From Escherichia phage vB_EcoM_VR7: DNA of 64,000 nucleotides. Position 1 is the stretch's first letter. Each line of letters starts with the position of its first letter. Below, one piece after another: positions 2,394 through 44,386 of the stretch. The DNA is taken from sequence record NC_014792.1. One strand, written 5' to 3'. The position numbers and the translations under genes are program-made. The notes under the pieces are model-generated. The model was given only the letters and a program-made list of their open reading frames with translations, made no database searches and was not told the origin of the DNA.

Positions 2394-2530
2394 GGTGAGT
2401 TAGGGAAGCTATCTTAACATGGAATTTTTAACTTGTAAACAGGAGTTTTATGCCAGATATTCTTGAACGTAAAGATTTACTTTACAACCGCCACTACCTT
2501 AATAAATATTAAATTAATAACGGAGGATTT

Positions 2531-3814
<1,284 letters not shown>

Positions 3815-3941
3815 TGCTACTGGGACTACACAACACGCCCACGAAGTAAAATATTTTATAATAGGACGCGACGGTTATACGGAAAATACTTCTGTTGGTG
3901 CTACTGTTACTATTGAAAAACTCTATAACTAAGGACTACAA

Positions 3942-4760
3942 ATGGCTATTACATTAAGTCCATCTTCAATAGACGTAGAATACGGTGACTCTTATACAGT
4001 CACTGCTAATATTCCAGATATTAGCCCTGGTTCATCTATTGTGTATAACTGGACTAAGAATAAAAAATTTATTAGTTCCGGAACTAATGTATTCACTGAA
4101 ATAGCATCATCGGTAGAAACATTCAGTATTGCGTGCCGAATTGAAATTATATCACCGGATAAAAACACTGAATATATTTTATCGGATTCTTGCTTGGTTA
4201 ATGTTAGTAAAAACACAAAAGCGGACGGTATAAATTCTCAGCTAGTTTATTCACCAGATGTTCATAAAATAGGTGACCAAGTTATTCTTTCTGTAGAATC
4301 CCATCATGTAGACCCTGGCTATATTAAAGGAGTTATTTGGAAAGATCCATCGGGTAATGTCGTGTCAATTGGTAAAGAATATACGCATAAGATTAAGACG
4401 ACAGAAGATGTTGTAGATGTAAAAATAGATTTGGCTTCTGAAAATTATGCCTATTACAATAAAACACTTCAAATTGTTCTTAAAGCTGTTGAAGAAGATA
4501 ATTCGGAGTGTAGTGTAAGATATATTCATCCTTTAGACCACAGGGATTCAGGATACATCTGGATGGGTTGGTGGGTTATGGACGAAATTGAAAGGGCGAC
4601 GGTAGAAGGATTAAATTGGAAAGCGCCGGACGGTACTGACCTGAAGTATAAGTGTGACTTGAAAACTCTTTCTATAATGCTTGACTTATATAATAATGTT
4701 GAAGTACAAGAATCAAGGAATGGTTATATTCTAAACAGGGCAGATTTACTTCCAAAATAA
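3942..4760 (+). CDS. Hoc-like paralog: short Ig-like N-terminal region plus Hoc-type C-terminal capsid-binding domain
   Basis: 272 aa; C-terminus (YIHPLDHRDSGYIWMGWWVMDEIERA...VEVQESRNGYILNRADL) matches the C-terminal domain of the neighbouring hoc product and of T4 Hoc as recalled. Confidence 0.7.
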   Translation: MAITLSPSSIDVEYGDSYTVTANIPDISPGSSIVYNWTKNKKFISSGTNVFTEIASSVETFSIACRIEIISPDKNTEYILSDSCLVNVSKNTKADGINSQLVYSPDVHKIGDQVILSVESHHVDPGYIKGVIWKDPSGNVVSIGKEYTHKIKTTEDVVDVKIDLASENYAYYNKTLQIVLKAVEEDNSECSVRYIHPLDHRDSGYIWMGWWVMDEIERATVEGLNWKAPDGTDLKYKCDLKTLSIMLDLYNNVEVQESRNGYILNRADLLPK

Positions 4761-4763
4761 AAA

Positions 4764-4785
4764 AGGGCCGCAAGGCCCTTTATCA
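4764..4785. terminator. Bidirectional terminator between convergent hoc-like and hoc genes
   Basis: GGGCCGCAAGGCCC hairpin with A/T runs on both sides; the minus-strand reading has the stronger T tract. Confidence 0.6.
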
Positions 4786-5889
4786 TTAATAGACGTAATC
4801 GTATATAATACCAGCTTCCAATGCCGAACGGTGGACGATACGACCGTTACGAGATTCCTGTACATCAACTTCCGGGTAATCACTAAGCATTTTGGCTAAT
4901 ACCGCCAGATGACAATAATATGGTGTATCCTCTTTAGTGGCTTTTTTCCAATCTGTACTTTCAGATGTTAATTTCTGAATAGCGTCCATAACCCACCAGC
5001 CACACCAAATATACGCAGTATTACGGACAGGAAGTGGATGTACATAAATTAAAGGGCATTCTTCTGGAATAACAGGCTCTGCTTCTTCCACCGTAACAGA
5101 CTTATTACCTGATTTAACTGAATTTGTAAAGCCTGTTTGCGATGCGGTAACTTCACAAGTATATGACTTCAAGCCTTCAGTGGATTCCGTTATTGCTCTT
5201 GTTGCTTCTGTTGAGTTGTCGTCCCATTTATATGCAAGAGTAGCACCAGGGATAGCAGGAGACACAGAAGCTGTCAAATTGAATGGAACATCAACCGTCG
5301 CAGTAGACGGGCCTGAAATCTCAACAGTGAACTCAGGAAATGTATTGTTTTCGACCGTAACAACTACTGCCTCAGGATTAATAACTTGATTGTCATAATC
5401 TGCAGCAGAAACGGTAATTTGACAAGTTAAAGAAACTGGTCCTGCGACAGTAGCAGTACGAGTAATATCTTTAGTAATTTCACCGGTAGACCACAAATAT
5501 GCTATTGTAGCTCCACCAGGTTCACCTGTTACGTCGGCCGAAGCGTTATATTCCTCGCCAACTTTAACGGTTGGAGTGGAAGTTGTTAATGTTGCAGTTG
5601 CAGACATAGTCTTGTTATTAACTGTAATAGTTGTTTGAGCCTCTGCCGTTTCAGGCTCTCCTTCTTCCGGCGTTGTGGTGGCAACAACTTTAATTACTTT
5701 TGAACCTGCTGGGCCAGCTGCAATATAATCCATAGTAGCAATAACAGAAGCTTGTGGAACATCATCAACGGTCCATACAAAAGATTCGGTACCAGCGACA
5801 GCGGCTCCAGCTCCAGTGGCAGTAAAATTAGTTGTTGCACCTATAACCGCTGTAGGTGTTAAAGGGGCAATTGATACAGTATAAGCCAT
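4786..5889 (-). CDS. hoc: Hoc, highly immunogenic outer capsid protein
   Basis: About 367 aa from MAYTVSIAPLTP; Ig-like repeats plus C-terminal YVHPLPVRNTAYIWCGWWVMDAIQK...YPEVDVQESRNG matching T4 Hoc; GGAG RBS before the internal ATG. Confidence 0.85.
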   Translation of the reverse strand: MAYTVSIAPLTPTAVIGATTNFTATGAGAAVAGTESFVWTVDDVPQASVIATMDYIAAGPAGSKVIKVVATTTPEEGEPETAEAQTTITVNNKTMSATATLTTSTPTVKVGEEYNASADVTGEPGGATIAYLWSTGEITKDITRTATVAGPVSLTCQITVSAADYDNQVINPEAVVVTVENNTFPEFTVEISGPSTATVDVPFNLTASVSPAIPGATLAYKWDDNSTEATRAITESTEGLKSYTCEVTASQTGFTNSVKSGNKSVTVEEAEPVIPEECPLIYVHPLPVRNTAYIWCGWWVMDAIQKLTSESTDWKKATKEDTPYYCHLAVLAKMLSDYPEVDVQESRNGRIVHRSALEAGIIYDYVY

Positions 5890-5916
5890 AAAAATCTCCA
5901 AAAGGCCATAGTGGCC

Positions 5917-6597
5917 TTAGTTTAAACGAATAAAAGATGAGTTACGTGTTTCACGAATAAGAATGGAACCGTCACGATTGATATAGTAAATCAAACTAAA
6001 CAATGTTTGGTGTGCGCTTGCATGAGTAAAAGAAGTAGGGCGTTCTTTCCAGTCCGGGGTCTCTTTAATCCACTGGTAAATCCACCAAGGGAGAGTACAA
6101 TATCCAGGAGCTTTGCCCAGCATAAGCAGATTGGGGCTAAAATTTTTAGGCAGTGTAAATTTAGGAGTTTCAGCTTCGATGATTTGAGCGACAGCTTCTT
6201 CAAAGTCTTCGGAAACAAACGGCACTTCAATTTCAACGAGTTTAACTTCTGATTCAGGAACAACTGCCTGGGTAACTTCGACTACTTCAACGGGTGCTTC
6301 TGGAGCATCAAACAAAAGAACAGCTTCAGGTTTAGCTGATTCTTCACCTTCAAACTTACTACCTGATAATTCATCATCAGCATTAATAAGGTCGGTGATG
6401 CTTAAGCCTTCGTTATCGTCCGGCATAGGCATGTCAGCAAATGCTTTAAGTCCTGCTTCCAGGTCAATCAACATATTATTGAAAGTTTTTGTTTTCTTAA
6501 CATCAACACCAAGCGATGATGCATATTCAGCTAATTTTTCTTTGGCTTCTTTTTTCTCGAGGACACGAATTTCCTCAATATAGTTCTTATCAATCAT
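5917..6597 (-). CDS. inh: probable Inh (prohead protease inhibitor)
   Basis: 226 aa acidic protein at the T4 inh position between hoc and uvsW; call is by length and synteny only. Confidence 0.45.
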   Translation of the reverse strand: MIDKNYIEEIRVLEKKEAKEKLAEYASSLGVDVKKTKTFNNMLIDLEAGLKAFADMPMPDDNEGLSITDLINADDELSGSKFEGEESAKPEAVLLFDAPEAPVEVVEVTQAVVPESEVKLVEIEVPFVSEDFEEAVAQIIEAETPKFTLPKNFSPNLLMLGKAPGYCTLPWWIYQWIKETPDWKERPTSFTHASAHQTLFSLIYYINRDGSILIRETRNSSFIRLN

Positions 6598-6615
6598 AAT
6601 GAACCTCGGTTATTG

Positions 6616-6623
6616 TATAAATA
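6616..6623 (+). promoter_or_regulatory. Late promoter (TATAAATA) upstream of uvsW
   Basis: Exact TATAAATA about 28 nt before the uvsW ATG. Confidence 0.6.
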
Positions 6624-6651
6624 TAGATATATTTATTACCTTGGAATCATC

Positions 6652-8151
6652 ATGGATATCAAAATCAACTTTTTAAATTTTAGTCATGTACATGTTGAAT
6701 GTGAAGATAGTATCTTCTATGAACTCCGTGACTATTTCAGTTTTGAAGCCGAAAACTATCGGTTTAACCCTAAATTCAAAGCGGGAGTTTGGGACGGACG
6801 TATCCGTCTCCTGGATTATAACCGTAAATTACCATACGGCTTAGTTAACCAGATTAAAAAATTCGCTGACCAGTTTGGTTATTCATTTTGGATTGACCCT
6901 CAAATCACCGAGAAAGAGGAAATCTCTCGTGCGGATTTCGATAAATGGGTCGAGTCAAAAGAAATCTATTCAGGCCATACCAAGATTACTCCCCATTGGT
7001 ACCAAACAGACGCCGTATACGACGGTCTGGTCAACAGAAGAAAGATATTGAACTTACCTACGTCTGCAGGTAAAAGCCTCATCCAGGCGCTTCTGGCGCG
7101 ATATTATCTCGAGAACTATGAAGGCAAGGTTCTTATCCTTGTACCTACAACCGCGCTTGTTGACCAGATGATTAACGATTTCGTCGATTACAGATTGTTC
7201 CCTCGAGAAGCTTGTCTCGGTATCCGTTCCGGAACTAAACGTGATTCAGATGCAATGATTTATGTGTCTACTTATCAGACGGCAGTAAAACAACCTAAAG
7301 AATGGTTTTCACAGTTCGGTCAGTTTATGAATGATGAATGCCATATGGCTACTGGTAAATCCATTTCGACTGTTATCGAAGGCCTGACTAATTGTATGTT
7401 TAAATTTGGTCTCTCTGGTTCTCTCCGTGACGGCAAAGCAAACCTTATGCAATATATGGGTCTGTTTGGTGATATCTTTAAACCAGTATCCACATCCCAA
7501 TTAATGGATGAAGGCCAAGTTACTGACCTTAAGATAAATAGTATTTTCCTTCGTTACCCTGATGAATTCACCGTTAAAATGAAAGGCAAATCTTATCAAG
7601 ATGAAATCAAGGTAATTACAAAAGCTACACGTAGAAATAAATGGGTAACAAACCTCGCACTCAAGCTTGCTAAAAAAGATGAAAACGTCTTTTTGATGTT
7701 TAAGAATATCGAGCATGGTAAATCGATGTTTGAAATGCTTAAGGAAGCAGGTCATGAGAACGTGTATTATGTTTCTGGGGAAGTTGATACAGAAACACGT
7801 AACGCATTAAAGGTCATGGCAGAGAATGGAAAGGGAATTATCGTTGTAGCTTCATATGGTGTATTCTCGACGGGGATTTCCGTTAAAAACCTCCATCATA
7901 TTATTTTCGCTCACCCGGTCAAGTCAAAGGTAATTGTACTCCAGACAATTGGTCGTGTACTTCGAAAACATGAATCCAAATCGCAAGCAAACGTTTTTGA
8001 TATCGTGGATGATATGGGTGTTAAACCTAAATCGGCAAATGCTAAAAAGAAATATGTTCATTTGAACTTCGCCCTAAAACATGGCCTTGAACGTATACAA
8101 CGATATGCTGATGAACGTTTTAACTATGTAATTAAACAGGTGGAAATATAA
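6652..8151 (+). CDS. uvsW: UvsW DNA/RNA helicase
   Basis: Strong match to T4 UvsW from MDIKINF; SF2 helicase motifs (LNLPTSAGKS, DECH); the track start at 6613 is rejected as an N-terminal extension. Confidence 0.9.
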   Translation: MDIKINFLNFSHVHVECEDSIFYELRDYFSFEAENYRFNPKFKAGVWDGRIRLLDYNRKLPYGLVNQIKKFADQFGYSFWIDPQITEKEEISRADFDKWVESKEIYSGHTKITPHWYQTDAVYDGLVNRRKILNLPTSAGKSLIQALLARYYLENYEGKVLILVPTTALVDQMINDFVDYRLFPREACLGIRSGTKRDSDAMIYVSTYQTAVKQPKEWFSQFGQFMNDECHMATGKSISTVIEGLTNCMFKFGLSGSLRDGKANLMQYMGLFGDIFKPVSTSQLMDEGQVTDLKINSIFLRYPDEFTVKMKGKSYQDEIKVITKATRRNKWVTNLALKLAKKDENVFLMFKNIEHGKSMFEMLKEAGHENVYYVSGEVDTETRNALKVMAENGKGIIVVASYGVFSTGISVKNLHHIIFAHPVKSKVIVLQTIGRVLRKHESKSQANVFDIVDDMGVKPKSANAKKKYVHLNFALKHGLERIQRYADERFNYVIKQVEI

Positions 8152-8378
8152 TGAAGTCATTTGAAGAAATTATGTATGAAGCGGCAATTGAAAGCTTCAT
8201 GTCTAAGATAGGTTCTTGTCAGACCATGGACGGTCTGAAGGAGCTGGAAGGTTATTATAAAAAGCGCAGCAAAGAAGCTGAATTGAAAGATTCCGATGAT
8301 ATCAGTGTTCGCGATGCTCTAGCAGGTAAACGTGCCGAGCTTGAGGATATGGACGACGAAGAAGACGAAGATTTCTAA
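8151..8378 (+). CDS. uvsW.1: UvsW.1 small acidic protein
   Basis: 75 aa; ATGA overlap with the uvsW stop; same position and size as T4 UvsW.1. Confidence 0.65.
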   Translation: MKSFEEIMYEAAIESFMSKIGSCQTMDGLKELEGYYKKRSKEAELKDSDDISVRDALAGKRAELEDMDDEEDEDF

Positions 8379-8435
8379 ATAAAAAGGCCCCAACCAAAAA
8401 GGAAGGGGCAAAACCAAAATGGTTAACAACACTAG

Positions 8436-8603
8436 CTAAATTAAAAGTTGGGTCTCGTTCAGTTGCTCTTGAGTATTTTCCGTAACTGGCAAACTCTGAA
8501 CATAATTATAACAGGCGCCCGGATGCACCGGACCTTGGTCTGTATCCACAACCAATGCAGAATCGATTGGAGTTTTACAGACAACACAAATCTTATCTGA
8601 CAT
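8436..8603 (-). CDS. small Cys-containing protein (CxxC...C), not in the ORF track (below 60 aa)
   Basis: 55 aa MSDKICVVCKTPIDSALVVDTDQGPVHPGACYNY...; GAGGAGA RBS; hairpin plus T-run terminator just downstream on the minus strand. Confidence 0.4.
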   Translation of the reverse strand: MSDKICVVCKTPIDSALVVDTDQGPVHPGACYNYVQSLPVTENTQEQLNETQLLI

Positions 8604-8635
8604 GATTGTCTCCTCAGTTAAACTTACATATCTAT

Positions 8636-8740
8636 TTAGTGCTTCTTTAATGCGGCATTAATAAACTGTTGAAATTCACGCATCTTCTCTTCAGAAGGTT
8701 TTAATGGTTTTCTAATATTTGCTTTACGACAACCCATCAT
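8636..8740 (-). CDS. small protein translationally coupled to uvsY, not in the ORF track
   Basis: 34 aa MMGCRKANIRKPLKPSEEKMREFQQFINAALKKH; ATGA overlap with the uvsY stop. Confidence 0.35.
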   Translation of the reverse strand: MMGCRKANIRKPLKPSEEKMREFQQFINAALKKH

Positions 8741-9171
8741 TTACCTGCCTCAAATTGTCTTATTTCTAACATATGTTTAAGTGCGAAACTTCGTGACTTA
8801 ACACCATCTAATGCAGCGCTACAGAAGTCCTGGAGCAGTGCCCAATATTGAATTGAAGTATCAATCTTAAGCACGCTTGAATCTGCAGCCATGACTGTTT
8901 TCAATTCTGACTTCTCGTACACATCCATGCATACTTCTTCCCCTGGGTCACCCCTTCCTGTATAATGGTCTAGTCGTTTTTTCAGTGCAGTCTTCTTCTG
9001 AATCTCAAGACGCATTATTTCTTTCTTGCAGTTAGTATACAATCTCAACCATTTGCTATGCAACAAAACGTTGTTTTGTGTTTCATATTGAATTTGTGTA
9101 CCATCAATTTTTAAATCTGCATCCAACTCATCCTGAAATACTTCCAACTTATATTCAATCTCTGTTTTCAT
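8737..9171 (-). CDS. uvsY: UvsY recombination mediator
   Basis: Matches T4 UvsY throughout (YSKWL..EIMRLEIQKKTALKKRLDHYTGRGD..SRSFALKHMLEIRQFEAGK); start taken at MKTEIEY because the upstream ATG lies inside the promoter. Confidence 0.85.
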   Translation of the reverse strand: MKTEIEYKLEVFQDELDADLKIDGTQIQYETQNNVLLHSKWLRLYTNCKKEIMRLEIQKKTALKKRLDHYTGRGDPGEEVCMDVYEKSELKTVMAADSSVLKIDTSIQYWALLQDFCSAALDGVKSRSFALKHMLEIRQFEAGK

Positions 9172-9196
9172 AATGTATCCAATGTAAGGGTCTAGA

Positions 9197-9226
9197 ACCA
9201 TTATACAGCCATAAAATTAAAGCATT
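9197..9226 (-). promoter_or_regulatory. MotA-dependent middle promoter for uvsY
   Basis: Minus strand reads TGCTTTA, 12 nt, TATAAT, then GGTTCTAGACC. Confidence 0.55.
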
Positions 9227-9614
9227 AACCGTTTTGACTTAACTGAATCCTGATTTGTTCGAGGGTGTCAGGGTCATCAACAATGCTGAACTGAACCGTT
9301 ACGATGATGGAGTTATCATCATACATAGGGACAACCGCAACCTGTAGATTGCTTATCCTTGGTTCGAAGTTCCGCACCGCGGAGACGATGTTGCGTTTAA
9401 TAGTATCTGTGATTAATGGAGTGATATTCTCAAAAAGCTGATTACTTATATCACATCCAAATTCAGGCATAAAAGGCCTTGACCCTTTTCTTGTGGTGAT
9501 TATTCCCAGAAGACTGTTCTTAACAGACCTTGCACCAGTTACTTTAGCAACGTCTTTATCCCAACTCATTGACAAGTCGGGAGGCACATCGCTATACATT
9601 TTGTTTATATTCAT
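9225..9614 (-). CDS. 25: baseplate wedge protein gp25
   Basis: 129 aa; strong match to T4 gp25 (NSLLGIITTRKGSRPF.PEFGCD). Confidence 0.85.
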   Translation of the reverse strand: MNINKMYSDVPPDLSMSWDKDVAKVTGARSVKNSLLGIITTRKGSRPFMPEFGCDISNQLFENITPLITDTIKRNIVSAVRNFEPRISNLQVAVVPMYDDNSIIVTVQFSIVDDPDTLEQIRIQLSQNG

Positions 9615-29932: not shown

Positions 29933-30411
29933 ACACCAAGCTCCTTATAAAGTTCTTCGCGACAAGTTTTCAGAATTTTACCAGTTTCATAAGCTGTGCT
30001 TTCAGAAACATCACCAAGTGCAGCGGCAGCTTGCATTTGGCCATGGCGTTTAGCAGCATATTCAAAACTTTTTACTAGCTCACGAATACGTTCTTTTTCA
30101 TTGTATTCTTCAATAAATTCTGGATATTCCCAAACAGGTCGCATCATACGATACCACAGTTGGATGGTAATATAATTACTTCCATCCAGATTAATAATTT
30201 GTGAAGGCTTAATAGCGCCAGGAGCATAAAAAGTTACCTGTCTTACTACATCAATACCATCCACAATAGCCCAAGCAAAATCGAAGGTGGCCTTCTTTTC
30301 AATTGGCGTGCTCGCACAAGACCCTAACTTTAAGAGCTTTTGTAATACAGGAGATTTAACTCCTGAAATGTACACAGGATTAGCTACAAAGCTGTTATCA
30401 CGTAATGACAT
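29929..30411 (-). CDS. hypothetical protein
   Basis: About 160 aa from MSLRDNSF; GAGGAAA RBS and early promoter upstream. Confidence 0.45.
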
Positions 30412-30576
30412 AATAGTTTCCTCAAATATTTTATAATCCGTAGGAGCATTATACTCTGCTCCCAAGAGTTTGTAAACTACTTACCAAAAAGACCATCAAT
30501 ACACATGCTGAATACAATTCCAAAACAAAAGCATGCAAAACCCAATCTAAAAACATCCCAGCCATCGATACAGGCT

Positions 30577-30870
30577 TCAATCATGGCAACGCTCCTCTTT
30601 TAGTTCAGAACGATAATAACATAACATACCTTTTTGGTCATGTACATATCTTTTTACATCATTCATCCAAATCCTGAATTCTTGCGATGCTTCAAAAGGC
30701 ATACCAACCCAGGCTTGACCGTCAATAACCTTCACTTCCCATTGCTGACGGTATTCCATTAATGTCTGTGGCCAATTAGGATGAACTTGAATTGTGGGCT
30801 CCGCAACGGGCTTCTGGGCACATGAAACGAGTCCAATAGCCAAACATACTGCCATGATAGATTTCATCAT
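30577..30870 (-). CDS. o-spanin (outer membrane lipoprotein, Rz1-like; T4 pseT.2 equivalent)
   Basis: 97 aa; signal peptide with lipobox LVSC; directly downstream of, and overlapping, the i-spanin gene. Confidence 0.65.
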   Translation of the reverse strand: MMKSIMAVCLAIGLVSCAQKPVAEPTIQVHPNWPQTLMEYRQQWEVKVIDGQAWVGMPFEASQEFRIWMNDVKRYVHDQKGMLCYYRSELKEERCHD

Positions 30871-31220
30871 TTGGTGAGCTCCTGGAAGTCCTGGGCGAAC
30901 TTATCAAAGGACTGATTAATCTGTTTTTCAACTAATTTAGGCTTAGCTGCCACAACCTTAGTACGTTTTGCATCTACACGAAGTTTATCATTTTCCTTCT
31001 GCAGAAGTTCAACATATTCCTGGCGCTCCTGGTCAAGGAGATTAATTTGATTAACCTGGTCTTTTACTGATTGCAGATTTTTCGCGTTATCTTCTGCAAC
31101 TTTGGTGACCGCAGCCACCTCTGTCTTGAGATTATCCACTTTTGCTTTTAGATAGAAACCACTACCAGCAGTTACTACCAGGGCGAGCATAAGCCCCGCA
31201 GTGATATTACTTATTTGCAT
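30867..31220 (-). CDS. i-spanin (inner membrane, Rz-like; T4 pseT.3 equivalent)
   Basis: 117 aa; N-terminal transmembrane helix then a charged coiled-coil-like periplasmic domain. Confidence 0.65.
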   Translation of the reverse strand: MQISNITAGLMLALVVTAGSGFYLKAKVDNLKTEVAAVTKVAEDNAKNLQSVKDQVNQINLLDQERQEYVELLQKENDKLRVDAKRTKVVAAKPKLVEKQINQSFDKFAQDFQELTK

Positions 31221-31711
31221 AACTTGATGATTACCTCAACAATATCATCCTGGGATAAACCATTCAGGAGGATGTGATTTGTACTGTCAGATGCTGAAAT
31301 GCGGAACTGATTACCAACTTCATCCGCCATATCATCCTGGGTTAACACTGGATGTTTAATTCCCAGGCGGTGTTGAAGTGTCAGGGGTTCAACCACAACA
31401 TAACAAACACATCCATTGATATGCACATTAGGTTGGGTCTGATTGATGAACACTTCTGCATCATATTTAACCAAATGGTTCTTTAAGAAGTCAACCATTT
31501 CAGGAACAGATTCATGAAGTGCTTCTTTACGCTCTTCTGATTTCTTATTGCGATATTCCTTCTGTTTGGTCTTCAACTTATTATCAGACGCCAGTTTCTT
31601 TCTTAAGTCAGTAAGGAACCCAACATTTTTGGAACCTTTATAAACATAGATTCCGTCATGGCGGTCACCATATACATCAACAATCATTTCATTTGAAATC
31701 AGTTGCATATT
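31211..31711 (-). CDS. alc: Alc (inhibitor of host transcription on cytosine-containing DNA)
   Basis: 167 aa from MNMQLISNEM, the same length as T4 Alc; position between rnlA and the pseT block; the track start at 31813 is rejected. Confidence 0.55.
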   Translation of the reverse strand, partial: NMQLISNEMIVDVYGDRHDGIYVYKGSKNVGFLTDLRKKLASDNKLKTKQKEYRNKKSEERKEALHESVPEMVDFLKNHLVKYDAEVFINQTQPNVHINGCVCYVVVEPLTLQHRLGIKHPVLTQDDMADEVGNQFRISASDSTNHILLNGLSQDDIVEVIIKLCK

Positions 31712-31724
31712 CATAATATTTTCC

Positions 31725-31958
31725 TCAATAGCGGTTATAACCTCTAGGACCAAAAGAGTTTGCACCCAGGCGCTCATCTTTCTTTTTGGCTCTTGCTCTA
31801 AACCCAGAATCACCTGTTTGGTCTTTCAGTTCTTTTAACAATTTGGCCTTCAGGTCAGTAATGAAACCAATCCGGCGGTCTCCCTTGTAGACATAGATTC
31901 CATCATTTCTGTCACCATATGCCTTTGTAACTCTGTCATTTGAAATTAAGTTTAACAT
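31725..31958 (-). CDS. truncated Alc N-terminal-domain paralog
   Basis: About 77 aa; LISNDRVTKAYGDRNDGIYVYKGDRRIGFITDLKAKL closely parallels alc residues LISNEMIVDVYGDRHDGIYVYKGSKNVGFLTDLRKKL; similarity is also visible at DNA level. Confidence 0.45.
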   Translation of the reverse strand: MLNLISNDRVTKAYGDRNDGIYVYKGDRRIGFITDLKAKLLKELKDQTGDSGFRARAKKKDERLGANSFGPRGYNRY

Positions 31959-32029
31959 GTTTTGGTCCTCATCAGTAGTTGATGGAACCATTATGTATAG
32001 AAAGAAGGGGCTTGTACACCCCTTTTTTA

Positions 32030-33166
32030 TTATTCAGGCAGGATTACATCCGCTTGGTAGTCCGCTGGGATGTAAAGTTTATGATTTTTAAGGAAAACAT
32101 TATTGATTTGAGCGATGGTTTGCTCTGTTTCCTGGGGACGTTGATACGTGTTCATTAATACGGAGAACAAACCCGGATATGGTTTACACAGTTCTTGACC
32201 TTTAATCGCAAACTCGCGTCGGTCTTTTCCTGCCAACTGTTTCTGGGCATCAAGCAACAGTCCCAGGGTATTGGACAGATAATCCAGATGGGTCAAAGTA
32301 AAGGCATTAACTTTTTCACGAGCATAATCATCGCCAGTAAACATGGCAATAACATCATCTGCACCGCCTGCGACAACAACTTCAAAAAGACGCTGGTTAT
32401 TGTTAACAGAATCCTTTGTATGGTGTAAAGCACAATACCATTCTGTCTTAACTTTAAATTTGCGACCATCGACCAGCTCATAGACAAAGCCTTCAATCTC
32501 TTTCATATCACGGACGTTTTCAATTGTAGCCGGGTCATATGCTTCAACCAGGAATGGGCGAAGCGCGGCATCTTTAAACAAATCCCGATAAGGGATATAT
32601 TCACCAGTTTCATTATGGCGAACGTTCAGTAAAATCAGGTCACGTTCCTGGTAAGGCAAAACAATGCGGTTGGTTGGCGCAACATATTCCATATTGCATG
32701 TATAACCAGCTTCAGTAATTTCAGTTACACGCTCACGGAAAGCTATACGGTGTTCTTGTTTGAATACCTGCAGGGCTTCTGCTGCCTGGGAGCTTTTGAT
32801 TGACCCTTTGGATTTAAAAGCAATATTGGTCTGGTCCATATAAGTGGAGACAAGAGAGCCATCAGCCTTGGTCATGACCAGCGCAACTTCATCCATATTG
32901 ATATCCATGGTCAACGGATTTTCGCCCAAGTTAAAGAACTTTTCCATAGGACGAGCCGCAATACGAACTGGACCATCTGCATCCATTTCAAACATAATGC
33001 CACGGCACTCTAATGCATCATCAAGGAGCCAATCACTATAGGAAGCATAGTTATAGCTAAAGATGCGGAACTTAGTTTCAAATGGAGAAACGAAATCAGT
33101 ATAGAAAAACTTACCTTTTTCAGATTCAGCGCACAGCTTCATTAAGTTGTCATATAATTCAATCAT
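32030..33166 (-). CDS. rnlA: RNA ligase 1
   Basis: 378 aa; strong match to T4 Rnl1 (FRIFSYNYASYSDWLL.DALECRGIMFEMD...TKADGSLVSTY). Confidence 0.95.
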   Translation of the reverse strand: MIELYDNLMKLCAESEKGKFFYTDFVSPFETKFRIFSYNYASYSDWLLDDALECRGIMFEMDADGPVRIAARPMEKFFNLGENPLTMDINMDEVALVMTKADGSLVSTYMDQTNIAFKSKGSIKSSQAAEALQVFKQEHRIAFRERVTEITEAGYTCNMEYVAPTNRIVLPYQERDLILLNVRHNETGEYIPYRDLFKDAALRPFLVEAYDPATIENVRDMKEIEGFVYELVDGRKFKVKTEWYCALHHTKDSVNNNQRLFEVVVAGGADDVIAMFTGDDYAREKVNAFTLTHLDYLSNTLGLLLDAQKQLAGKDRREFAIKGQELCKPYPGLFSVLMNTYQRPQETEQTIAQINNVFLKNHKLYIPADYQADVILPE

Positions 33167-33579
33167 TTCTTCACCTTATGTTGGTAGTTCCACGGGGGAT
33201 TAAAAAGCTTTATGAACATCGGCTCTTCCAGAGACATAGTTTCGACTGACATCGTACCAAGTTCATTGGTCATTGATAGATTGAAACATTGTCGTGCATA
33301 GAATACCACCTTTTGACCTGCATGTAAAGCTTCATGTATCATCCGGGATTTGTTTGAATCACTCGTTTGTTCTATACGATTGATTGCAGTCCGGTAATAA
33401 TTGATTCGCTTCTTCAGGTTGTTCGTCTTACCAATATACACTAGTTCATCGTCAACTGAAATAGCGTAGATAACATTTTTCTTGTTCGCGAGTGTAAGGG
33501 TAGGGATTTTACCATCGACTAACTCTAACTCCGCATATTTTATAAAACTGTATTCGTCAGCGATTTGTTTCATAGACAA
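33163..33579 (-). CDS. denA: endonuclease II (GIY-YIG nuclease)
   Basis: 138 aa; GIY-YIG-like motif VIYAISVDDELVYIGKTNNLKKRINYY; T4 denA position between rnlA and nrdB. Confidence 0.7.
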   Translation of the reverse strand: MSMKQIADEYSFIKYAELELVDGKIPTLTLANKKNVIYAISVDDELVYIGKTNNLKKRINYYRTAINRIEQTSDSNKSRMIHEALHAGQKVVFYARQCFNLSMTNELGTMSVETMSLEEPMFIKLFNPPWNYQHKVKK

Positions 33580-33581
33580 AA

Positions 33582-33598
33582 AGGGCCGAAGCCCTTTC
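33582..33598 (-). terminator. Hairpin terminator between nrdB and denA
   Basis: GGGCCGAAGCCC hairpin with T-run on the minus strand. Confidence 0.5.
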
Positions 33599-33599
33599 C

Positions 33600-34778
33600 T
33601 TATAGATATTTACGGAAACCAGCAAGAACATTCTCATCGACGTCATTGTCAATCTGGGCTACCAGGTAAGCGGACAACTCAACTTCTTGTGGCGCAGATT
33701 GCACATTATCAGAATTGAGATATTCGCGAATCCATGGAATCGGGTGCTTAGTAGATTCTAACACGATTTCACAAGGGAGACCGCATTGCTTCATACGAGA
33801 AACTGTCAGGTAATCGATGAACCGGTTAAGAATCTCGACGCTCAGCCCGGGGAGTCCACCATCTTTAAACAGATGCACAGCCCATTCTTTTTCCTGACGA
33901 TTGACTTCCATGAAAATAGCTGCGGCTTCTGCTTCACATTCGTGAGCAATTTTAACCCATTCGTCACCGTCAACACCAGTCTGCAGCTGACGAAGAATAT
34001 ATTGGGTTCCCTTAAGGTGGAGCTGCTCATCACGTGCGATGAACTTCATTATCTTCGCATTGCCTTCCATGATTTCCATGTTCTTATGGAAGTTGAAAGT
34101 ACAAGCAAAAGATACATAAAAACGAATTGCTTCCAGGGCGTTAATGACATGCAGGCAGAGATAAAGAGATTTCATCAATGCTCGTTTGGCAATAGCTTCT
34201 TGTTTGATAGCTCGTTCCAAACGTTGGTCCACTTCGGGAGTTTCTTTGGCCAGTTCAACAAAAGCAATCTGGTTTTGCCATTGACGAGTTTTATTCAGAA
34301 CATCATCATAGTAATAGCCAATTGATTCGGCTCGCTTCATGATTGCATCATCTAACAGGATTTCGTCGAATACCTTCGCCGGGTCTGTATAGAGATTTCG
34401 CATGATGTGTGTATAAGAACGAGAGTGAATTGTCTCGCTGAATGTCCAGGTCTGAATCCATGTATCAAGACTCGGGTCAGAAACTAATGCGGCTAATGCT
34501 GCAGCCGGAGCACGACCCTGGATACTGTCCAGAAGTGATTGGTACTTCAGGTTATTGGTAAAAATATTTTGTTGATGTTCAGGAAGCTTATTAAATTGAG
34601 CTCCGTCCATCATCAGGTTTACTTCCTCGGGCCGCCAGAAGAATGACAATTGCTTTTCTGTTAATTCTTCAAAAACTTTATGACGCTGGATATCATAACG
34701 GGCGATGCCCAATCCTGAACCAAAAAACATCGGCTCGGCTAAAACATCCACCGGAGTGGTATTAAAAACTGTACTCAT
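33600..34778 (-). CDS. nrdB: ribonucleotide reductase small subunit (uninterrupted, no intron)
   Basis: 392 aa continuous ORF; strong match to class Ia R2 and T4 NrdB. Confidence 0.95.
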   Translation of the reverse strand: MSTVFNTTPVDVLAEPMFFGSGLGIARYDIQRHKVFEELTEKQLSFFWRPEEVNLMMDGAQFNKLPEHQQNIFTNNLKYQSLLDSIQGRAPAAALAALVSDPSLDTWIQTWTFSETIHSRSYTHIMRNLYTDPAKVFDEILLDDAIMKRAESIGYYYDDVLNKTRQWQNQIAFVELAKETPEVDQRLERAIKQEAIAKRALMKSLYLCLHVINALEAIRFYVSFACTFNFHKNMEIMEGNAKIMKFIARDEQLHLKGTQYILRQLQTGVDGDEWVKIAHECEAEAAAIFMEVNRQEKEWAVHLFKDGGLPGLSVEILNRFIDYLTVSRMKQCGLPCEIVLESTKHPIPWIREYLNSDNVQSAPQEVELSAYLVAQIDNDVDENVLAGFRKYL

Positions 34779-34816
34779 TTTATTTCCTCAATAGCTCATC
34801 CATGAGCATAATTATA

Positions 34817-37072
34817 TCAAAGTTTACAAGCGGAGCAGTCTTCTGCTTTAGGAGCTTCGATTTCGTAATCGTCTGTTCCGGAACCGTCTCTAGTGTTATG
34901 ATAATAAAGGTTTTTTCCACCAAAATACCAGAAGTACATCAAGTCGTCAAGCATAACTGACATCGGAACTTTTCCTTTCGGAAAAATCTGTGGGTCATAG
35001 TATGTGTTTGCTGAAGCTGATTGACATACCCATTTCAACATAATAGCTACCATCGTAAGATAAGGTTTATTACCTTTCTTAGCTAGCACCCATGCATAAT
35101 CGTACAATCCTTTATTGTGCTCAATATTGGGCACGACTTGATTAAAGGAACCCTCTTTTGACTCTTTAATAGAGACTGGTCCACGCGGAGGTTCGATACC
35201 GTTTGTACTGTTAGAAACTTGGGAAGATGACTCACAAGGCATAAGTGCTGATAATGTGCTATTACGGATGCCATATGCAACCAGGTCTTCCCGCAACTGC
35301 GCCCAGTCACAAACGTAGTTTGGAGCTGCGATTTGGTCAATCTTTTTATTGTACCAGTCGATAGGTAATTCGCCTCGAGCCCAACGAGTGTCTGAATAAT
35401 ATTCGCAAGGTCCTTTTTCTTTGGCGAGCTTGATTGATGCTCGGATAAGGCCATATTGTAATCTCTCAAATAATTCATGGGTTAAATCGTTTGCATCAGC
35501 GTAAGAAGCGAAATTGCTTGCCAGCCATGCAGCATAGTTAGTAACCCCAACACCCAGGTTACGGCGTTTTTTGGCTTTCAGAGCTTCTTTAACCGGATAA
35601 CCTTGGTAGTCCAACAGGTTATCAAGAGCACGAACTTGAACTTCAGCCAGCTCGTTAATCTTGTCTTGGTCCTGCCAGTCAAAACTATCCAGAACAAATG
35701 CAGACAATGTGCACAATCCGATTTCAGCGTCTTCACTGTTTACATCAGTAGTCGGGATTGCAATTTCACAACATAAATTCGATTGACGAATCGGAGCCTT
35801 ATCGCGGATGAACGGAGTATAGTCATTCACATTATCAACGAACTGCGGATAAACTCGGGCAGTGCCGGAACGTTCGGTCATGAATAATTCGAACAGGTCT
35901 TTTGCTTTGATGCGCTTCTTACGAACTGTCGGGTCTTTTTCCAAGGCTTCGTATAACTCACGGAATTTATCCGGGTTATCAAAATATGAATAATACAATT
36001 CACCACCGGCTTCGTGTGGACTAAACAGAGTGATGTAATCATTCTTAGCCAGTCGTTCCATCATCAGGTTATTCAACTGAACACCATAGTCCATATGTCT
36101 GATGCGGTTTTCTTCAACGCCCTTGTTGTTCTTCAGAACGAGTAAATTTTCAACTTCCAAATGCCATAAAGGATAATAAGCAGTAGCAGCGCCGCCACGG
36201 ATTCCACCTTGTGAACAGGATTTAACAGCCGTTTGGAAATGTTTCCAGAACGGAATAACACCAGTATGCTTGACTTCACCCATACCGATTTTCGAACCTT
36301 CAGCACGAATCATGCCAACGTTGATACCGATACCCGCCCGCTTACTGATATATTCGATGATTGAATTGGCGGTCTTATTGATTGACTTCAGGGAGTCAGC
36401 AGCTTCGATAACCACACAGGAACTGAACTGCCGGGTAGGTGTTCTGGCGCCCGCCATGATAGGTGTGGGCAACGAAACCTGTCTTGTGGATACTGCATCA
36501 TAAAAACGGCAAACGTGCTTCAGACGGTCCGTTGGTTCATCCTGGTGCAGTGCCATGCCGATAGCCATGATAGCGAATTGCGGAGTCTCGTAGATTTTAC
36601 CGGTGGTTTTATCTTTAACCAGGTATTTCTCTTTCAACTGCATCGCGCCTGCATAAGTCAGGTCAAAATCACGTTCGTGTTTGATACGAGATTCCAGATA
36701 AGTAATCTCTTCGGCGGAGTAGCTTGACAACAGTTCCGGGTCATATTTGCCTTCATTGACACAATAAGAAATCTGGTCAATAAAAGAACGTGGCTCGAAC
36801 TGACCATAGACATCTTTACGCAGAGCAAACATCGTAGCTTTGGCCGCAACATATTGGTAATCTGGTTCTTCAACCGAGATAAGTCCAGCAGACACTTTGA
36901 TGATAACCGTCTGAATATCGCGAGTAGTCATACCATCGCGCAGATGTGGTTTGATTGTTTCGTATAATTCATACGGGTCGATATTAGTTCCTTCACATGA
37001 CCAGGAAAGAACTTTAATAATTTTCTGGCCATCAAAATCTTGAGATACGCCACTACTTTTTTGTACTTGCAT
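34817..37072 (-). CDS. nrdA: ribonucleotide reductase large subunit
   Basis: 751 aa; near-identical to T4 NrdA over long stretches (GIGINVGMIRAEGSKIGMGEV, C-terminal CSACKL). Confidence 0.95.
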   Translation of the reverse strand: MQVQKSSGVSQDFDGQKIIKVLSWSCEGTNIDPYELYETIKPHLRDGMTTRDIQTVIIKVSAGLISVEEPDYQYVAAKATMFALRKDVYGQFEPRSFIDQISYCVNEGKYDPELLSSYSAEEITYLESRIKHERDFDLTYAGAMQLKEKYLVKDKTTGKIYETPQFAIMAIGMALHQDEPTDRLKHVCRFYDAVSTRQVSLPTPIMAGARTPTRQFSSCVVIEAADSLKSINKTANSIIEYISKRAGIGINVGMIRAEGSKIGMGEVKHTGVIPFWKHFQTAVKSCSQGGIRGGAATAYYPLWHLEVENLLVLKNNKGVEENRIRHMDYGVQLNNLMMERLAKNDYITLFSPHEAGGELYYSYFDNPDKFRELYEALEKDPTVRKKRIKAKDLFELFMTERSGTARVYPQFVDNVNDYTPFIRDKAPIRQSNLCCEIAIPTTDVNSEDAEIGLCTLSAFVLDSFDWQDQDKINELAEVQVRALDNLLDYQGYPVKEALKAKKRRNLGVGVTNYAAWLASNFASYADANDLTHELFERLQYGLIRASIKLAKEKGPCEYYSDTRWARGELPIDWYNKKIDQIAAPNYVCDWAQLREDLVAYGIRNSTLSALMPCESSSQVSNSTNGIEPPRGPVSIKESKEGSFNQVVPNIEHNKGLYDYAWVLAKKGNKPYLTMVAIMLKWVCQSASANTYYDPQIFPKGKVPMSVMLDDLMYFWYFGGKNLYYHNTRDGSGTDDYEIEAPKAEDCSACKL

Positions 37073-37203
37073 GTTTTCCTCTGTTATAAAATGGGGTCAT
37101 GCTTATACTAACACATGACCCCTGGAGCGGAATCGTATTTATAGAAGGAAGTTAAGTCCGACCATTACGACCAAAAATAAAATGCCAGCAATTTGAATTT
37201 TCA

Positions 37204-38862
<1,659 letters not shown>

Positions 38863-38866
<4 letters not shown>

Positions 38867-39204
38867 TTTAATTCCTTAACTGCCTTTTTAATGGCAGTAA
38901 AATCTTTGCGAATATCGAGAACCAATTTGTAAAGATGTTTAATTGTATCTGTATCAAAATATGATACCGCGCAACGTGATTGGCGAATATCTTCTAATGA
39001 ATATTTGCTTTCGCTTGTGCCATATCCAATGATACCACTAATGCACTTGTCATTAAGCGTATACTTCTGGGGGACATCAATAATATTTTTAGGATAGATG
39101 TAAAGGCTCCAATCAAATTTTTGTTCAAGCGTATTAACCTTAACTTCAAGAACCAGTTCAGGATGCGCATCATCTTTAGCAAAACAAGTGTATTCAACAA
39201 GCAT
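38863..39204 (-). CDS. hypothetical protein (frd.2 position)
   Basis: About 113 aa from MLVEYTCF with GAGGAAAA RBS; the longer track ORF is rejected. Confidence 0.45.
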
Positions 39205-39214
39205 TATATTTTCC

Positions 39215-39454
39215 TCACGCTTTCTTAGCGATTTTCCAGTCAGCTTTAAATTGGTCAACATCAGAGTGGTGAATCCAGAAACCAGATGAGCTACCATCTT
39301 CATAAAGAGGACAACCATCACACTCATCTTTCCAACCCATTGCACACAAAGTTTCTTCTGCTTTTTCCAGAGCTTCTGGATTGTTACCTTGGATTGTGAA
39401 GTACCATTTGCCTTTAACTTCTGAATCTTTGATGCTCTCACGTTTTAATTTCAT
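39215..39454 (-). CDS. hypothetical protein (frd.3 position)
   Basis: 79 aa; Cys/His-containing (CAMGWKDECDGCP). Confidence 0.45.
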   Translation of the reverse strand: MKLKRESIKDSEVKGKWYFTIQGNNPEALEKAEETLCAMGWKDECDGCPLYEDGSSSGFWIHHSDVDQFKADWKIAKKA

Positions 39455-39513
39455 TTTATTCTCCTCAAGTTGGTAAGGCTATAGTATCACTACCATAGCC
39501 CTGTTGTAAACAT

Positions 39514-39741
39514 TTATTTTTGAATTAAGCCCATATAAAATTCAGCATCTTCAACATGCATACCATCACAATACTCGTCAGTCATAAAACGAGTCAGGTC
39601 TTCAAGAGGGCCTTGAACTTCAATTTGGATACTAAAGAATTGAGTATCTTTTATGTAAGTCATACTCAAAGAAGGATAACGATTACGGATAACTTCGTAA
39701 GTGTATTCAAAATCAACAATATCAATATTAACTTTAGCCAT
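39514..39741 (-). CDS. hypothetical protein
   Basis: 75 aa; RBS and early promoter upstream. Confidence 0.45.
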
Positions 39742-39805
39742 TTTATTTTCCTCATGTAGTTGATAGGTCTATAGTATCTCAACCATAGACAGTGTACACT
39801 ACTTT

Positions 39806-40072
39806 TTAAATTTTATCAAGCCATTTGCCAAGTTTAGTCATTTCTTTAGTAGCTTTTTCTAGACTTCTGAACTTGACTAACAAAGGATAAGTATCTACAC
39901 CCATAACTAAAGTGGTTACAAGACTATGCTCGCCTACAAGCCATAGAGAATACGTTTGAACATCAAGTCCGTAATTTCGGTCTTTATGAACACGTACACC
40001 CATCACTTCAAACTGTTCGCTGGCTTTTTCTACTGCATCCAGGAAATCATCTTTAGTCATATTAAATTCCAA
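39806..40072 (-). CDS. hypothetical protein
   Basis: 88 aa ORF. Confidence 0.4.
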   Translation of the reverse strand: MEFNMTKDDFLDAVEKASEQFEVMGVRVHKDRNYGLDVQTYSLWLVGEHSLVTTLVMGVDTYPLLVKFRSLEKATKEMTKLGKWLDKI

Positions 40073-40433
40073 AGGTAGCTTTAATCAAGGCAATGACTTC
40101 CGCTGCATTTTTGTGATTAACCTGCACATGAATGGTTTGCGTGTCAACAACAGGAGCTGGAGCTTCATCCACTTCTAAGAAGTATTGGAATTCACCTTCA
40201 GCGAGCTCGAAATAGTATTCACCTTTCATGTCCATGGAAGTAAAGATTGTCCCGTCTTTCATTTCAATCATTTCAACAAAATACTCACCATAATAGCATC
40301 CCATATCCAGAACTTTAAAGGTGTCACCACACTCTGCCATCCGCTTAACCATAAGTGCATTATCATCTGGACAGTCAGCGATGAAACGTTTTTTAGCAGC
40401 GGGGTCTAATACGTAAGTTTTACCAGTTTCCAT
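40062..40433 (-). CDS. hypothetical protein
   Basis: 123 aa; RBS and early promoter upstream. Confidence 0.45.
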   Translation of the reverse strand: METGKTYVLDPAAKKRFIADCPDDNALMVKRMAECGDTFKVLDMGCYYGEYFVEMIEMKDGTIFTSMDMKGEYYFELAEGEFQYFLEVDEAPAPVVDTQTIHVQVNHKNAAEVIALIKATFGI

Positions 40434-40510
40434 TTTTATTTCCTCAGTTGTTATCAGCAGTTGATGGAATCATTATGCCTTAGCTCAAGGAGCTTGTACA
40501 CTACTTTTTG

Positions 40511-40540
40511 AAAATAAAAAAGGGACCCGAAGGTCCCCTT
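40511..40540 (-). terminator. Rho-independent terminator after gene 32
   Basis: GGGACCTTCGGGTCCC hairpin followed by TTTTTTATTTT on the minus strand. Confidence 0.7.
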
Positions 40541-40543
40541 ATA

Positions 40544-41455
40544 TTAAAGGCCAGCCAGAAGGTCGTCAAGACCATCATCAGAAGGCTCTGGAGTGCTTGG
40601 AGCAGTCGCAGTGCGTTCAGACTTAGCAGGTTTGTTGGAAGTGAAGTCTTCCATATCTTTATCAAAATCGTCCAGGTCAGCGCCCAGTTTATCAGCTTGT
40701 GCAGCAGCTTTAGAAGCAGCACCGCCGAGAGCAGCCGTACCCATTACTTTAGAGAATTTCTTCTGATTCTCTTCAAGGGATTTAAACACCAGCAATTCAT
40801 TCAGGTCAGACATTTCGTCCCAAAGTTTTTTCTGGAACGCTTCATCATTGATGCCAGCGATTTCAGACTGGTTCATGAATTTGGAATCATCGTAGTTTTT
40901 ATAACCGGAAACCATTTTAGATTTCAGTACGAAGTTCGCACCTTCAAAAGGACAAGTTACATCAATAGCTGTTTCGCCCATGTCAACATCGACTTCAACC
41001 ATCTGGTTGATTTTGTCCATGATTTTCTTACCGAAGCGGTATTTGAATACTTGACCTTCGTTAGACGGAACAGCAGGGTCTTTAATGACCAGGATGTTAG
41101 CCCAGTAAGAAGTATTACGCTTCAGTTTACGATATTCGGATTCGTTTGTATTGTACAGGTCATTCTTATTCATGTACGCACACACAGGACAGTTTTCATA
41201 GTCGCCGTGAGTAGAAGTACAGTTTTCAATATACCATTGACCAGCATTTTTAAAGCCGTGGTTAACCAACTTAATGAACGGAGATGGATTTTCTTCATTC
41301 TTAGAAGGCAGGAAACGAATAACCGCAGAGCCGACGCCATCAGTATCTTTCAGTTTCCATTCTTTTTTATCGTCAGAAGAGAAACCGGCACCACCTTTCA
41401 GAGCGTTCAGGGAAGCGGCGAGGTCAGCTGGGTTACGACGTTTAAACATAGACAT
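40544..41455 (-). CDS. 32: gp32 single-stranded DNA-binding protein
   Basis: 303 aa; strong match to T4 gp32 (AVIRFLPSK...HGFK..G.WYIE.C.STHGDY; acidic C-terminal tail). Confidence 0.95.
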
Positions 41456-41525
41456 AGTGATTTCCTTAGATTATTTGATTTTAACAGTTGTTTTGATTAC
41501 GTATTAATTATACTACTTTTTATTT
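41456..41525 (-). promoter_or_regulatory. gene 32 leader: middle-promoter-like element plus A/U-rich 5' UTR (probable gp32 translational operator)
   Basis: Minus strand reads GCGCTTTA, 12 nt, TATAAT, then an A/U-rich leader of about 45 nt before the ATG; operator function is inferred from T4 biology. Confidence 0.4.
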
Positions 41526-41636
41526 AAAGCGCATTTATCACGGTGACGTTTTAAATGATTTATAGATGTTTCATATCCACATAAATCACAAATGGCCCTT
41601 GGTAATTTTTTACCTTTAAACCCTTTGGGATGAATA

Positions 41637-42185
41637 TTATCTGGGTTTGAGTAACGGCGCTTTAGCAGAATCACTAAGAGTTTTTATCACTTCAATACCT
41701 CTGATATTATTTATTTTATCATCTTTTTCATAAAAGCGATTTAAGCCTTCAGAAATTGATTTCTTATGCTCCGTGCTTTTTGGAACATCCTTTTGTGCTT
41801 CCGAAATACATTGATTTGTGTATATGGAATTTTTCATTCCATATCTTGGTGCGCGTTCACCGGCACCACCAAATGCACCATGAGCTGTTGCTTTATTAAA
41901 GAATAGCGGTGATTTTGGTATATTATAATGAGAGTGGTACCACTCTTCCTCGTCCAAAACATCTTCACAGACATCGAGTATTTTAACTGTCGGCTTTTCG
42001 AGTTGAATAGCTTCAAGAAAATCAGCTTGCTCACATGAGGACCAATATTCTCTTCTTGAAGTATATTTCAAATCAATTATAACACCATTTTCAAAAGCGC
42101 AATTATGCTTTGACCCAATGTAAAAATAAGGAGGTGTTTTATTTTTCAGACGAGTTTCAAATGTAAACCAATATACAACATTCAA
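41637..42185 (-). CDS. segG: GIY-YIG homing endonuclease (SegG-like)
   Basis: 182 aa; N-terminal VVYWFTFETRL...PYFYIGSK GIY-YIG-like motif; sits between genes 32 and 59 like T4 segG. Confidence 0.55.
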   Translation of the reverse strand: MNVVYWFTFETRLKNKTPPYFYIGSKHNCAFENGVIIDLKYTSRREYWSSCEQADFLEAIQLEKPTVKILDVCEDVLDEEEWYHSHYNIPKSPLFFNKATAHGAFGGAGERAPRYGMKNSIYTNQCISEAQKDVPKSTEHKKSISEGLNRFYEKDDKINNIRGIEVIKTLSDSAKAPLLKPR

Positions 42186-43375: not shown

Positions 43376-43383
43376 AATATACC

Positions 43384-44328: not shown

Positions 44329-44357
44329 ATGAACCTCTGTTCAATTAGTTGACTCGA

Positions 44358-44386
44358 TTATATTAGCATAAAATTTTTAAAGCAAT
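44358..44386 (-). promoter_or_regulatory. MotA-dependent middle promoter for rnh
   Basis: Minus strand reads TGCTTTA, 12 nt, TAATAT; GAGG RBS before the rnh ATG. Confidence 0.5.

Follow-up and report, generated by a model that had tools for sequence, protein, structure and literature searches.

Two convergent Hoc-type genes with a common capsid-binding domain in Escherichia phage vB_EcoM_VR7

Escherichia phage vB_EcoM_VR7 (VR7; sequence record NC_014792.1), a T4-like member of the Straboviridae, carries, within the stretch of 64,000 nucleotides (nt) analysed here and referred to as the window, two convergent Hoc-type genes with a common capsid-binding C-terminal domain (C-domain). In addition to the canonical hoc gene, the open reading frame (ORF) 3942-4760 of the opposite strand, referred to as Hoc2, probably encodes a second functional Hoc-type head-decoration protein, which would be produced late and would dock on gp23* hexamers in competition with Hoc. 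The convergent pair had been proposed in an earlier note on this DNA; sequence, predicted fold, contact residues, synteny and terminator all agree with it, and both ORFs (272 and 367 amino acids, aa) lie at the positions that it had given. The role proposed for Hoc2 is built on homology, fold, contact residues, the gp23 docking segment in related phages, the structure of the cassette that contains the gene and the retention of the gene across divergent alleles. Hoc (highly immunogenic outer capsid protein) is the standard T4 display platform and is thought to tune the adherence of virions to surfaces such as mucus, as well as their dispersal. The features of the two genes, including their immunoglobulin-like (Ig-like) domains, are the following.

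3942-4760, plus strand: Hoc2 (VR7 gp197), 272 aa, from an ATG start to a stop codon
3942-4217, plus strand: Hoc2 Ig-like domain 1 (aa 1-92)
4218-4499, plus strand: Hoc2 Ig-like domain 2 (aa 93-186)
4500-4757, plus strand: Hoc capsid-binding domain of Hoc2 (aa 187-272)
4762-4781, both strands: terminator-like bidirectional hairpin common to both genes, 20 nt, GC-rich, within the 25-nt spacer 4761-4785
4786-5889, minus strand: canonical hoc, 367 aa, three Ig-like domains and a capsid-binding domain

The Hoc2 start codon is preceded by an AAGGA Shine-Dalgarno sequence 7 nt upstream, and the protein is an exact match to YP_004063878.1 / ADR32572.1 (VR7_gp197; the VR7 genome is 169,285 bp long). 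Hoc2 and the resident Hoc were aligned by pairwise BLASTP with an E-value of 1e-31 and 29% identity over 258 aa. The similarity of the C-terminal modules alone, which the earlier note had left to be verified by alignment, is significant (tblastn, E ~1e-25, 49% identity over 81 aa); the conserved motif described there was found in both proteins, and tblastn detected no copy of the module in the window other than those of Hoc2 and Hoc. Hoc2 also matches PHROG 1149 'Hoc-like head decoration' (1.8e-57), and its sole sequence match in the PDB is T4 Hoc (E 2.3e-29). The search of Pfam returned a weak match to Ig_2 and no Hoc match, because the Pfam copy used contains no Hoc model. The N-terminal region of Hoc2 had been described as shorter than that of Hoc and different from it. 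It is indeed shorter, with two Ig-like domains, but the difference does not hold in kind: it is also Ig-like, and its domain 1 is homologous to domain 2 of Hoc (E 3e-5) and also matches domain 3 of T4 Hoc. With an isoelectric point (pI) of 4.88, Hoc2 is acidic like other Hocs, the value for the resident Hoc being 4.35.

The predicted structure points in the same direction. The AlphaFold2 model of Hoc2, computed from an input alignment of 25 sequences, has a mean predicted local distance difference test score (pLDDT) of 86 and is composed of two beta-sandwich domains (aa 1-90 and 97-183) followed by the C-domain (aa 194-272). Strands and helices of residues 194-272 succeed each other in the order of the Hoc anchor, whose fold has a helical bundle on top of a four-stranded sheet. 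Foldseek superimposed the C-domain model on 8t1x_X, the structure solved for the C-domain of T4 Hoc in its gp23*-bound state, with a template modelling (TM) score of 0.77 and a root-mean-square deviation (rmsd) of 1.8 Å over 83 columns with 52% identity, and matched the N-terminal part to RB49 Hoc (3shs, E 7e-8) and to two-Ig receptors.

In T4 Hoc, the residues reported to make contact with gp23* or to keep the docking loop in place are Y293, H295, H299, R300, Y304, W306, W309, W310, D313, Q354, E355-S-R-N-G359 and Y360 (Fokine et al. 2023, PMC10385173). In the alignment, Hoc2 is identical to T4 Hoc at 15/15 of these reported contact or docking-loop residues, its equivalents including Y194, H196, R201, W210, W211, D214 and E257-G261; the resident Hoc keeps 13/15, with the changes H299V and Y360R. 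The docking segment of gp23 (T4 G326-R344, which contains D336 and R344) has 18-19/19 identical residues in VR5, SP18, VR20, KIT01 and Kosakonia 305, this conservation being read in relatives as VR7's own gp23 gene sits just outside the window. One Hoc molecule binds the centre of each gp23* hexamer (PMC10385173). With the same anchor, the same contact residues and one site per capsomer, Hoc2 and Hoc would be expected to compete, and the earlier note's proposal of competition for the capsid sites, or of their partitioning, can reasonably be inferred from the conserved anchor. The Hoc of RB49 decorates T4 capsids in vitro (PMC10385173, section 3.7); therefore, diverged C-domains can use one site.

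The second member of the pair, ORF 4786-5889, is the true hoc orthologue, as established by a full-length match to T4 Hoc (E 9.3e-79, residues 1-365 being collinear with T4 1-375) and by synteny, the gene order hoc-inh-uvsW being the same as in VR5, VR26 and SP18. Its product matches PHROG 1149 (2.5e-115) and is identical to the VR7 Hoc YP_004063879.1. The hoc ATG is at 5889; the mechanically delimited ORF reaches further, to a TTG at 5901. Between the stop codon of inh and the start of hoc, immediately 5' of the Shine-Dalgarno sequence of hoc, positions 5900-5916 contain a small hairpin (GGCCACTATGGCC on the minus strand), which cannot be told from shuffled sequences by its folding energy (z -1.4).

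The two genes had been proposed to converge on one terminator hairpin, and a hairpin with an 8-bp stem, AAAGGGCC-GCAA-GGCCCTTT, was found in the spacer. As RNA it is stable on both strands compared to shuffled sequences, the folding energies being -15.3 kcal/mol (z -4.5) for the plus strand and -21.8 kcal/mol (z -5.0) for the minus strand; for hoc, it is followed by a strong U-tract (UUUUUUAUUUU). An equivalent hairpin is present behind hoc in SP18 and VR20, which have no cassette, and behind Hoc2 in VR26, KIT01, Kosakonia 305 and L010, a 173-kb metagenomic T4-like contig (ENA ERZ27245996 k123_278436).

Hoc2 is the second gene of an insertion of ~2.3 kb, situated between gene 24.3 and the hoc terminator. 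In SP18 and VR20, which do not contain the insertion, the sequence is shared up to window position ~2452 and then continues directly with the hoc terminator. The other features of this cassette are the following.

2500-2509, plus strand: candidate late-promoter variant TAATAAATAT, 22 nt 5' of the start of the collagen-like gene
2531-3932, plus strand: collagen-like fibre gene, the first of the cassette and a homologue of VR7 gp196, split into ORFs 2531-3814 and 3744-3932
3757-3760, plus strand: run of T longer by one T than in VR5 (CCAATTTTCGG compared to CCAATTTCGG), from the DNA alignment with VR5

The collagen-like gene matches Pfam Collagen (9e-42) and PHROG 5073 (2.7e-118). In VR5, the intact protein has 433 aa and its gene ends 9 nt before Hoc2. 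In the window, the gene has a +1 frameshift because of the extra T at 3757-3760, which is either a homopolymer sequencing error or a genuine truncation; as a consequence of the frameshift, the final ~58 aa of the C-terminal domain are either replaced or lost, and the resulting 427-aa product has no match in the protein collection. The collagen-like gene and Hoc2 are found 9-29 nt apart in VR5, VR25, VR26, ESCO10, KIT01, Kosakonia 305 and L010. The N-terminal domain of the collagen-like protein (aa 1-44, 2531-2662) is kept in all cassette alleles and in the 'tail fiber' homologues of Vequintavirinae, where these homologues are encoded between capsid and neck genes. It was detected in no T4-like phage of the collection except the cassette carriers, and a scan of viral contigs with the pattern of this domain revealed no further T4-like cassette, all its matches being VR5, VR25, VR26 and Vequintavirinae-like contigs. 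The domain resembles a single EF-hand (NCS-1, 1fpw_A, E 2.4e-5), which suggests a calcium-binding or EF-like attachment motif before the collagen triple helix.

Hoc2 is probably expressed late and jointly with the collagen-like gene, as judged from the arrangement of putative signals. The T4-type late promoter box is TATAAATA, with the start of the transcript about 6 nt downstream. At 2500-2509, before the cassette, only a variant of this box is present; the same 10-mer TAATAAATAT is present upstream of inh (6629-6638, minus strand), and ATAAATA is also present 5' of the cassette in VR26, Kosakonia 305 and L010. No separate promoter that fits was found in the sequence directly before Hoc2: a candidate of its own, TATAACTA at 3925-3932, was rejected as too near the ATG, where it would exclude a Shine-Dalgarno sequence.

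The relationship between the two genes was examined through their C-domains. That of Hoc2 is 47% identical to that of the resident Hoc and 52% identical to that of T4 Hoc, compared with 57-74% for the Hoc2 proteins of VR26, KIT01, Kosakonia 305 and L010 and 53-68% for the Hocs of Serratia phages; canonical Hocs are 67-100% identical to each other. Because its C-domain is nearer to other Hoc2 proteins than to the resident Hoc, Hoc2 constitutes a separate lineage, and these identities rule out that it arose recently as a duplicate of the resident hoc. The Serratia phages X20 and 92A1 have a sole Hoc, at the canonical position, and its anchor is of the Hoc2 type (RYIHPLDHR...KYKCDL...NVEVQESRNG).

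The earlier note had also raised the question of a paralogue in related phages. Hoc2 was found in VR5, VR25, VR26, ESCO10, KIT01, Kosakonia 305 and L010, and all carriers, at least seven phages and one metagenome contig, have an intact ORF of 272-287 aa. Between alleles, identity falls to 27-37% in the Ig domains and stays at 57-74% in the anchor. Compared to VR5, the Hoc2 of the window has six synonymous and two non-synonymous codon changes. The backbone of VR7 is nearest to that of VR25 (Gaprivervirus), with 97.6% identity over window 30000-50000; the cassette allele, on the other hand, is 99% identical between VR7 (Gaprivervirus) and VR5 (Dhakavirus), and VR25 and VR26 (Gaprivervirus) have theirs in common with KIT01 (Dhakavirus). 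By this sequence comparison, the cassette alleles are discordant with the backbone, i.e. the cassette is horizontally mobile and has been swapped between genera.

The cassette can also outlive the resident gene. In Kosakonia 305, the canonical hoc is reduced to a remnant of ~360 nt and Hoc2 is the only intact Hoc.

L004 (Kosakonia 305) 4835-5196, NC_070776.1 about 119606-119967, between Hoc2 and inh: hoc remnant, whose reverse strand still reads the Hoc tail '...LEAGTIYSYVY*'

L010 encodes three Hoc-type genes at 3372-9462: a Hoc2 of 282 aa, a Hoc of 960 aa with a divergent anchor and a one-Ig Hoc of 185 aa. The gp24 gene (vertex protein) occurs as two tandem paralogues in VR5, VR26, VR20 and Kosakonia 305 (spans L001 1-1621, L002 1-1376, L009 2810-5374 and L008 3428-5990) and as one copy in SP18 and KIT01; by synteny, the window starts inside the second copy, the end of which occupies 1-780. 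A tie between Hoc2 and the duplication of gp24 was ruled out, as KIT01 has one gp24 and Hoc2, and VR20 has two gp24 and no Hoc2.

The following scheme is proposed from these observations. Hoc2 would be a short acidic fibre, with a Hoc capsid-binding domain that carries two Ig-like domains, and would have arrived as the second gene of the mobile collagen-like and Hoc2 cassette of ~2.3 kb. It would be co-transcribed late with the collagen-like gene, with termination at the hairpin common with hoc. After capsid expansion, the C-domain of Hoc2 would dock at the centre of the gp23* hexamer, at the single site per capsomer that is used by Hoc. Virions would then bear a mix of long (three-Ig) and short (two-Ig) fibres with differing surface-binding properties.

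Several observations weigh against this scheme. The first ones concern expression. On the plus strand, the U-tract after Hoc2 is weak (UUUAUCAUU, three U and then mixed sequence). The promoter assignment relies on AATAAATA, a 7/8 match to the T4 box whose 7-mer core is not enriched in the window; because the 7-mer occurs at chance frequency, the late promoter at 2500-2509 is tentative. Moreover, with the collagen-like gene frameshifted in the window, any translational coupling to Hoc2 is lost. The last one concerns the anchor: the VR7/VR5/ESCO10 allele of Hoc2 ends with 'RADLLPK', without the C-terminal E-x-G-x-I-Y tail that is present in nearly all other Hoc C-domains examined, the exceptions being the short metagenome sequences P0017 and P0018. 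This loss could weaken folding or binding.

Hoc2 may alternatively be the capsid anchor or partner of the collagen-like fibre, the cassette acting as a single unit for the attachment of a long collagen fibre to the head, without independent decoration by Hoc2. The two genes do adjoin in every T4-like genome that has either of them, across three genera and several very divergent alleles, and the Vequintavirinae homologue of the collagen-like gene sits in the head-neck module. Nevertheless, the two proteins do not co-vary: the collagen N-terminal domain is identical at 44/44 positions between the window and VR26, for only 27-35% identity in the Hoc2 Ig domains, and KIT01 and VR26 have Hoc2 proteins that are 93% identical next to unrelated collagen C-terminal domains. 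In Vequintavirinae, the collagen-like homologue has no Hoc2-like sequence nearby, and a monomeric Hoc anchor would not match a trimeric collagen fibre in stoichiometry. Direct binding between Hoc2 and the collagen-like protein thus finds no support in co-variation or in the Vequintavirinae loci, and this alternative is regarded as unlikely.

The missing tail raises another possibility, namely that the VR7/VR5 allele of Hoc2 is a decaying or weakly binding copy, perhaps expressed but contributing little to the virion. Among Hoc2 proteins, the loss is specific to the VR7/VR5/ESCO10 allele, and the frameshift in the neighbouring collagen-like gene hints at relaxed selection on the cassette. Such decay is nonetheless quite improbable: VR7, VR5, ESCO10 and three metagenome members all have an uninterrupted ORF with 99% conservation, most of the differences being synonymous, the contact residues of the truncated-tail protein are all in place, AlphaFold2 is confident on the truncated domain (pLDDT 86-91 over residues 201-270), and P0017 and P0018 likewise end without the tail. 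Finally, it is very improbable that Hoc2 binds elsewhere, on a subset of capsomers or another virion component, and is partitioned from Hoc rather than in competition with it, since the separate lineage of its C-domain and the unequal Hoc binding already known for the vertex-proximal hexamers of T4 (PMC10385173) are outweighed by its fully conserved contact residues, by the invariant gp23 docking segment and by the Serratia phages X20 and 92A1, where this type of C-domain is the only Hoc.

Independently of the choice of a decoration protein competing with Hoc as the preferred reading for Hoc2, a further gene of the region shows a likeness to the Hoc fold.

5917-6597, minus strand: inh, prohead protease inhibitor (PHROG 1051, 3.8e-88)

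The C-terminal ~65 aa of Inh (about nt 5920-6120) align with the Hoc anchor profile (hhalign, E 3.1e-4) and keep the WW, DWK and E-S/T-R-N motifs. The AlphaFold2 model of Inh is confident in this C-terminal part (pLDDT 82-90). Its top Foldseek match among 350,542 PDB chains is 8t1x_X, with a probability of 1.00, a TM score of 0.59 and an rmsd of 2.9 Å, the next match having an E-value of 1.3. In the BFVD ranking, Inh orthologues are followed mostly by Hoc or outer-capsid proteins, e.g. the Hoc of 44RR2.8t (E 2e-4, rmsd 1.4 Å). A search of 1.84 billion representatives with the hidden Markov model (HMM) of the Hoc C-domain yielded no Inh protein; the relation is consequently one of profile-profile and fold comparison. 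On these grounds, the C-terminal domain of Inh appears to have the Hoc capsid-binding fold as a remote relative, a likeness that, if confirmed, would be a clue to the association of Inh with the head. A more speculative extension, which is rather doubtful at present, would make the hoc region a hub of one capsid-docking fold in three adjacent genes: an exchangeable collagen-like and Hoc2 display module, Hoc, and Inh with its remote anchor homologue. If this were true, the cassette would compete with the resident Hoc and could eventually replace it, as in Kosakonia 305, and Inh would also dock on gp23 capsomers via the Hoc fold.

The finding of Hoc2 is correct and already known in kind. RefSeq already applies the name 'Hoc-like head decoration' to Hoc2 in VR7, VR5, VR25 and VR26, and Fokine et al. 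2023 (PMC10385173) reported second Hoc-like proteins for Enterobacter phage PG7 and Serratia phage Muldoon, that of Muldoon having 314 aa with two Ig domains. The discovery is therefore modest, because the gene is annotated as Hoc-like and two-Hoc phages are published. Across 1342 phage records, tblastn located the Hoc C-domain in 1515 places, i.e. 173 extra copies, and the profile search of the same 1.84 billion representatives yielded 152 clusters of varied architectures, some with N-terminal anchors. Two Hoc genes in one phage, which the earlier note considered unusual, are so relative to T4 but, in view of these extra copies and of the published two-Hoc phages (PMC10385173), not relative to T4-like phages in general. 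We found no earlier description of the collagen-like and Hoc2 cassette, of its exchange between genera or of the replacement of hoc in Kosakonia 305. A phage with two Hoc fibres that differ in length and sequence on one anchor would offer a natural system for the study of mixed decoration and site competition, and the mobile cassette illustrates the exchange of surface properties between phage genera.

Compared to known systems, Hoc2 is like T4 Hoc (8t1x, 5vf3; RB49 Hoc 3shs) in its contact residues, anchor fold, N-terminal string of Ig domains, acidic pI and location in the hoc-inh-uvsW region. It differs from T4 Hoc by its two Ig-like domains instead of three, by its gene, which is on the opposite strand and in an inserted cassette behind a collagen-like gene, and by its C-domain, which is of a different lineage and lacks the last ~10 residues (E-x-G-I-I-Y tail). 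The C-domain lineage closest to Hoc2 is that of the Hocs of the Serratia phages X20 (179 aa) and 92A1 (273 aa) and of Shigella phage vB_SdyM_006, with the 53-68% identity applying to the matched region; unlike Hoc2 in VR7, these proteins are encoded by the sole hoc of their phage, in the canonical position and orientation after inh. The PG7 architecture with the C-domain at the N-terminus was not seen in VR7. Muldoon and PG7 nevertheless resemble VR7 in that a second, shorter Hoc with fewer Ig domains and the same anchor is encoded beside the main hoc. In Muldoon, the two hoc genes are in tandem on one strand without a collagen-like partner, whereas in VR7 they are convergent and the second one belongs to a mobile two-gene cassette.

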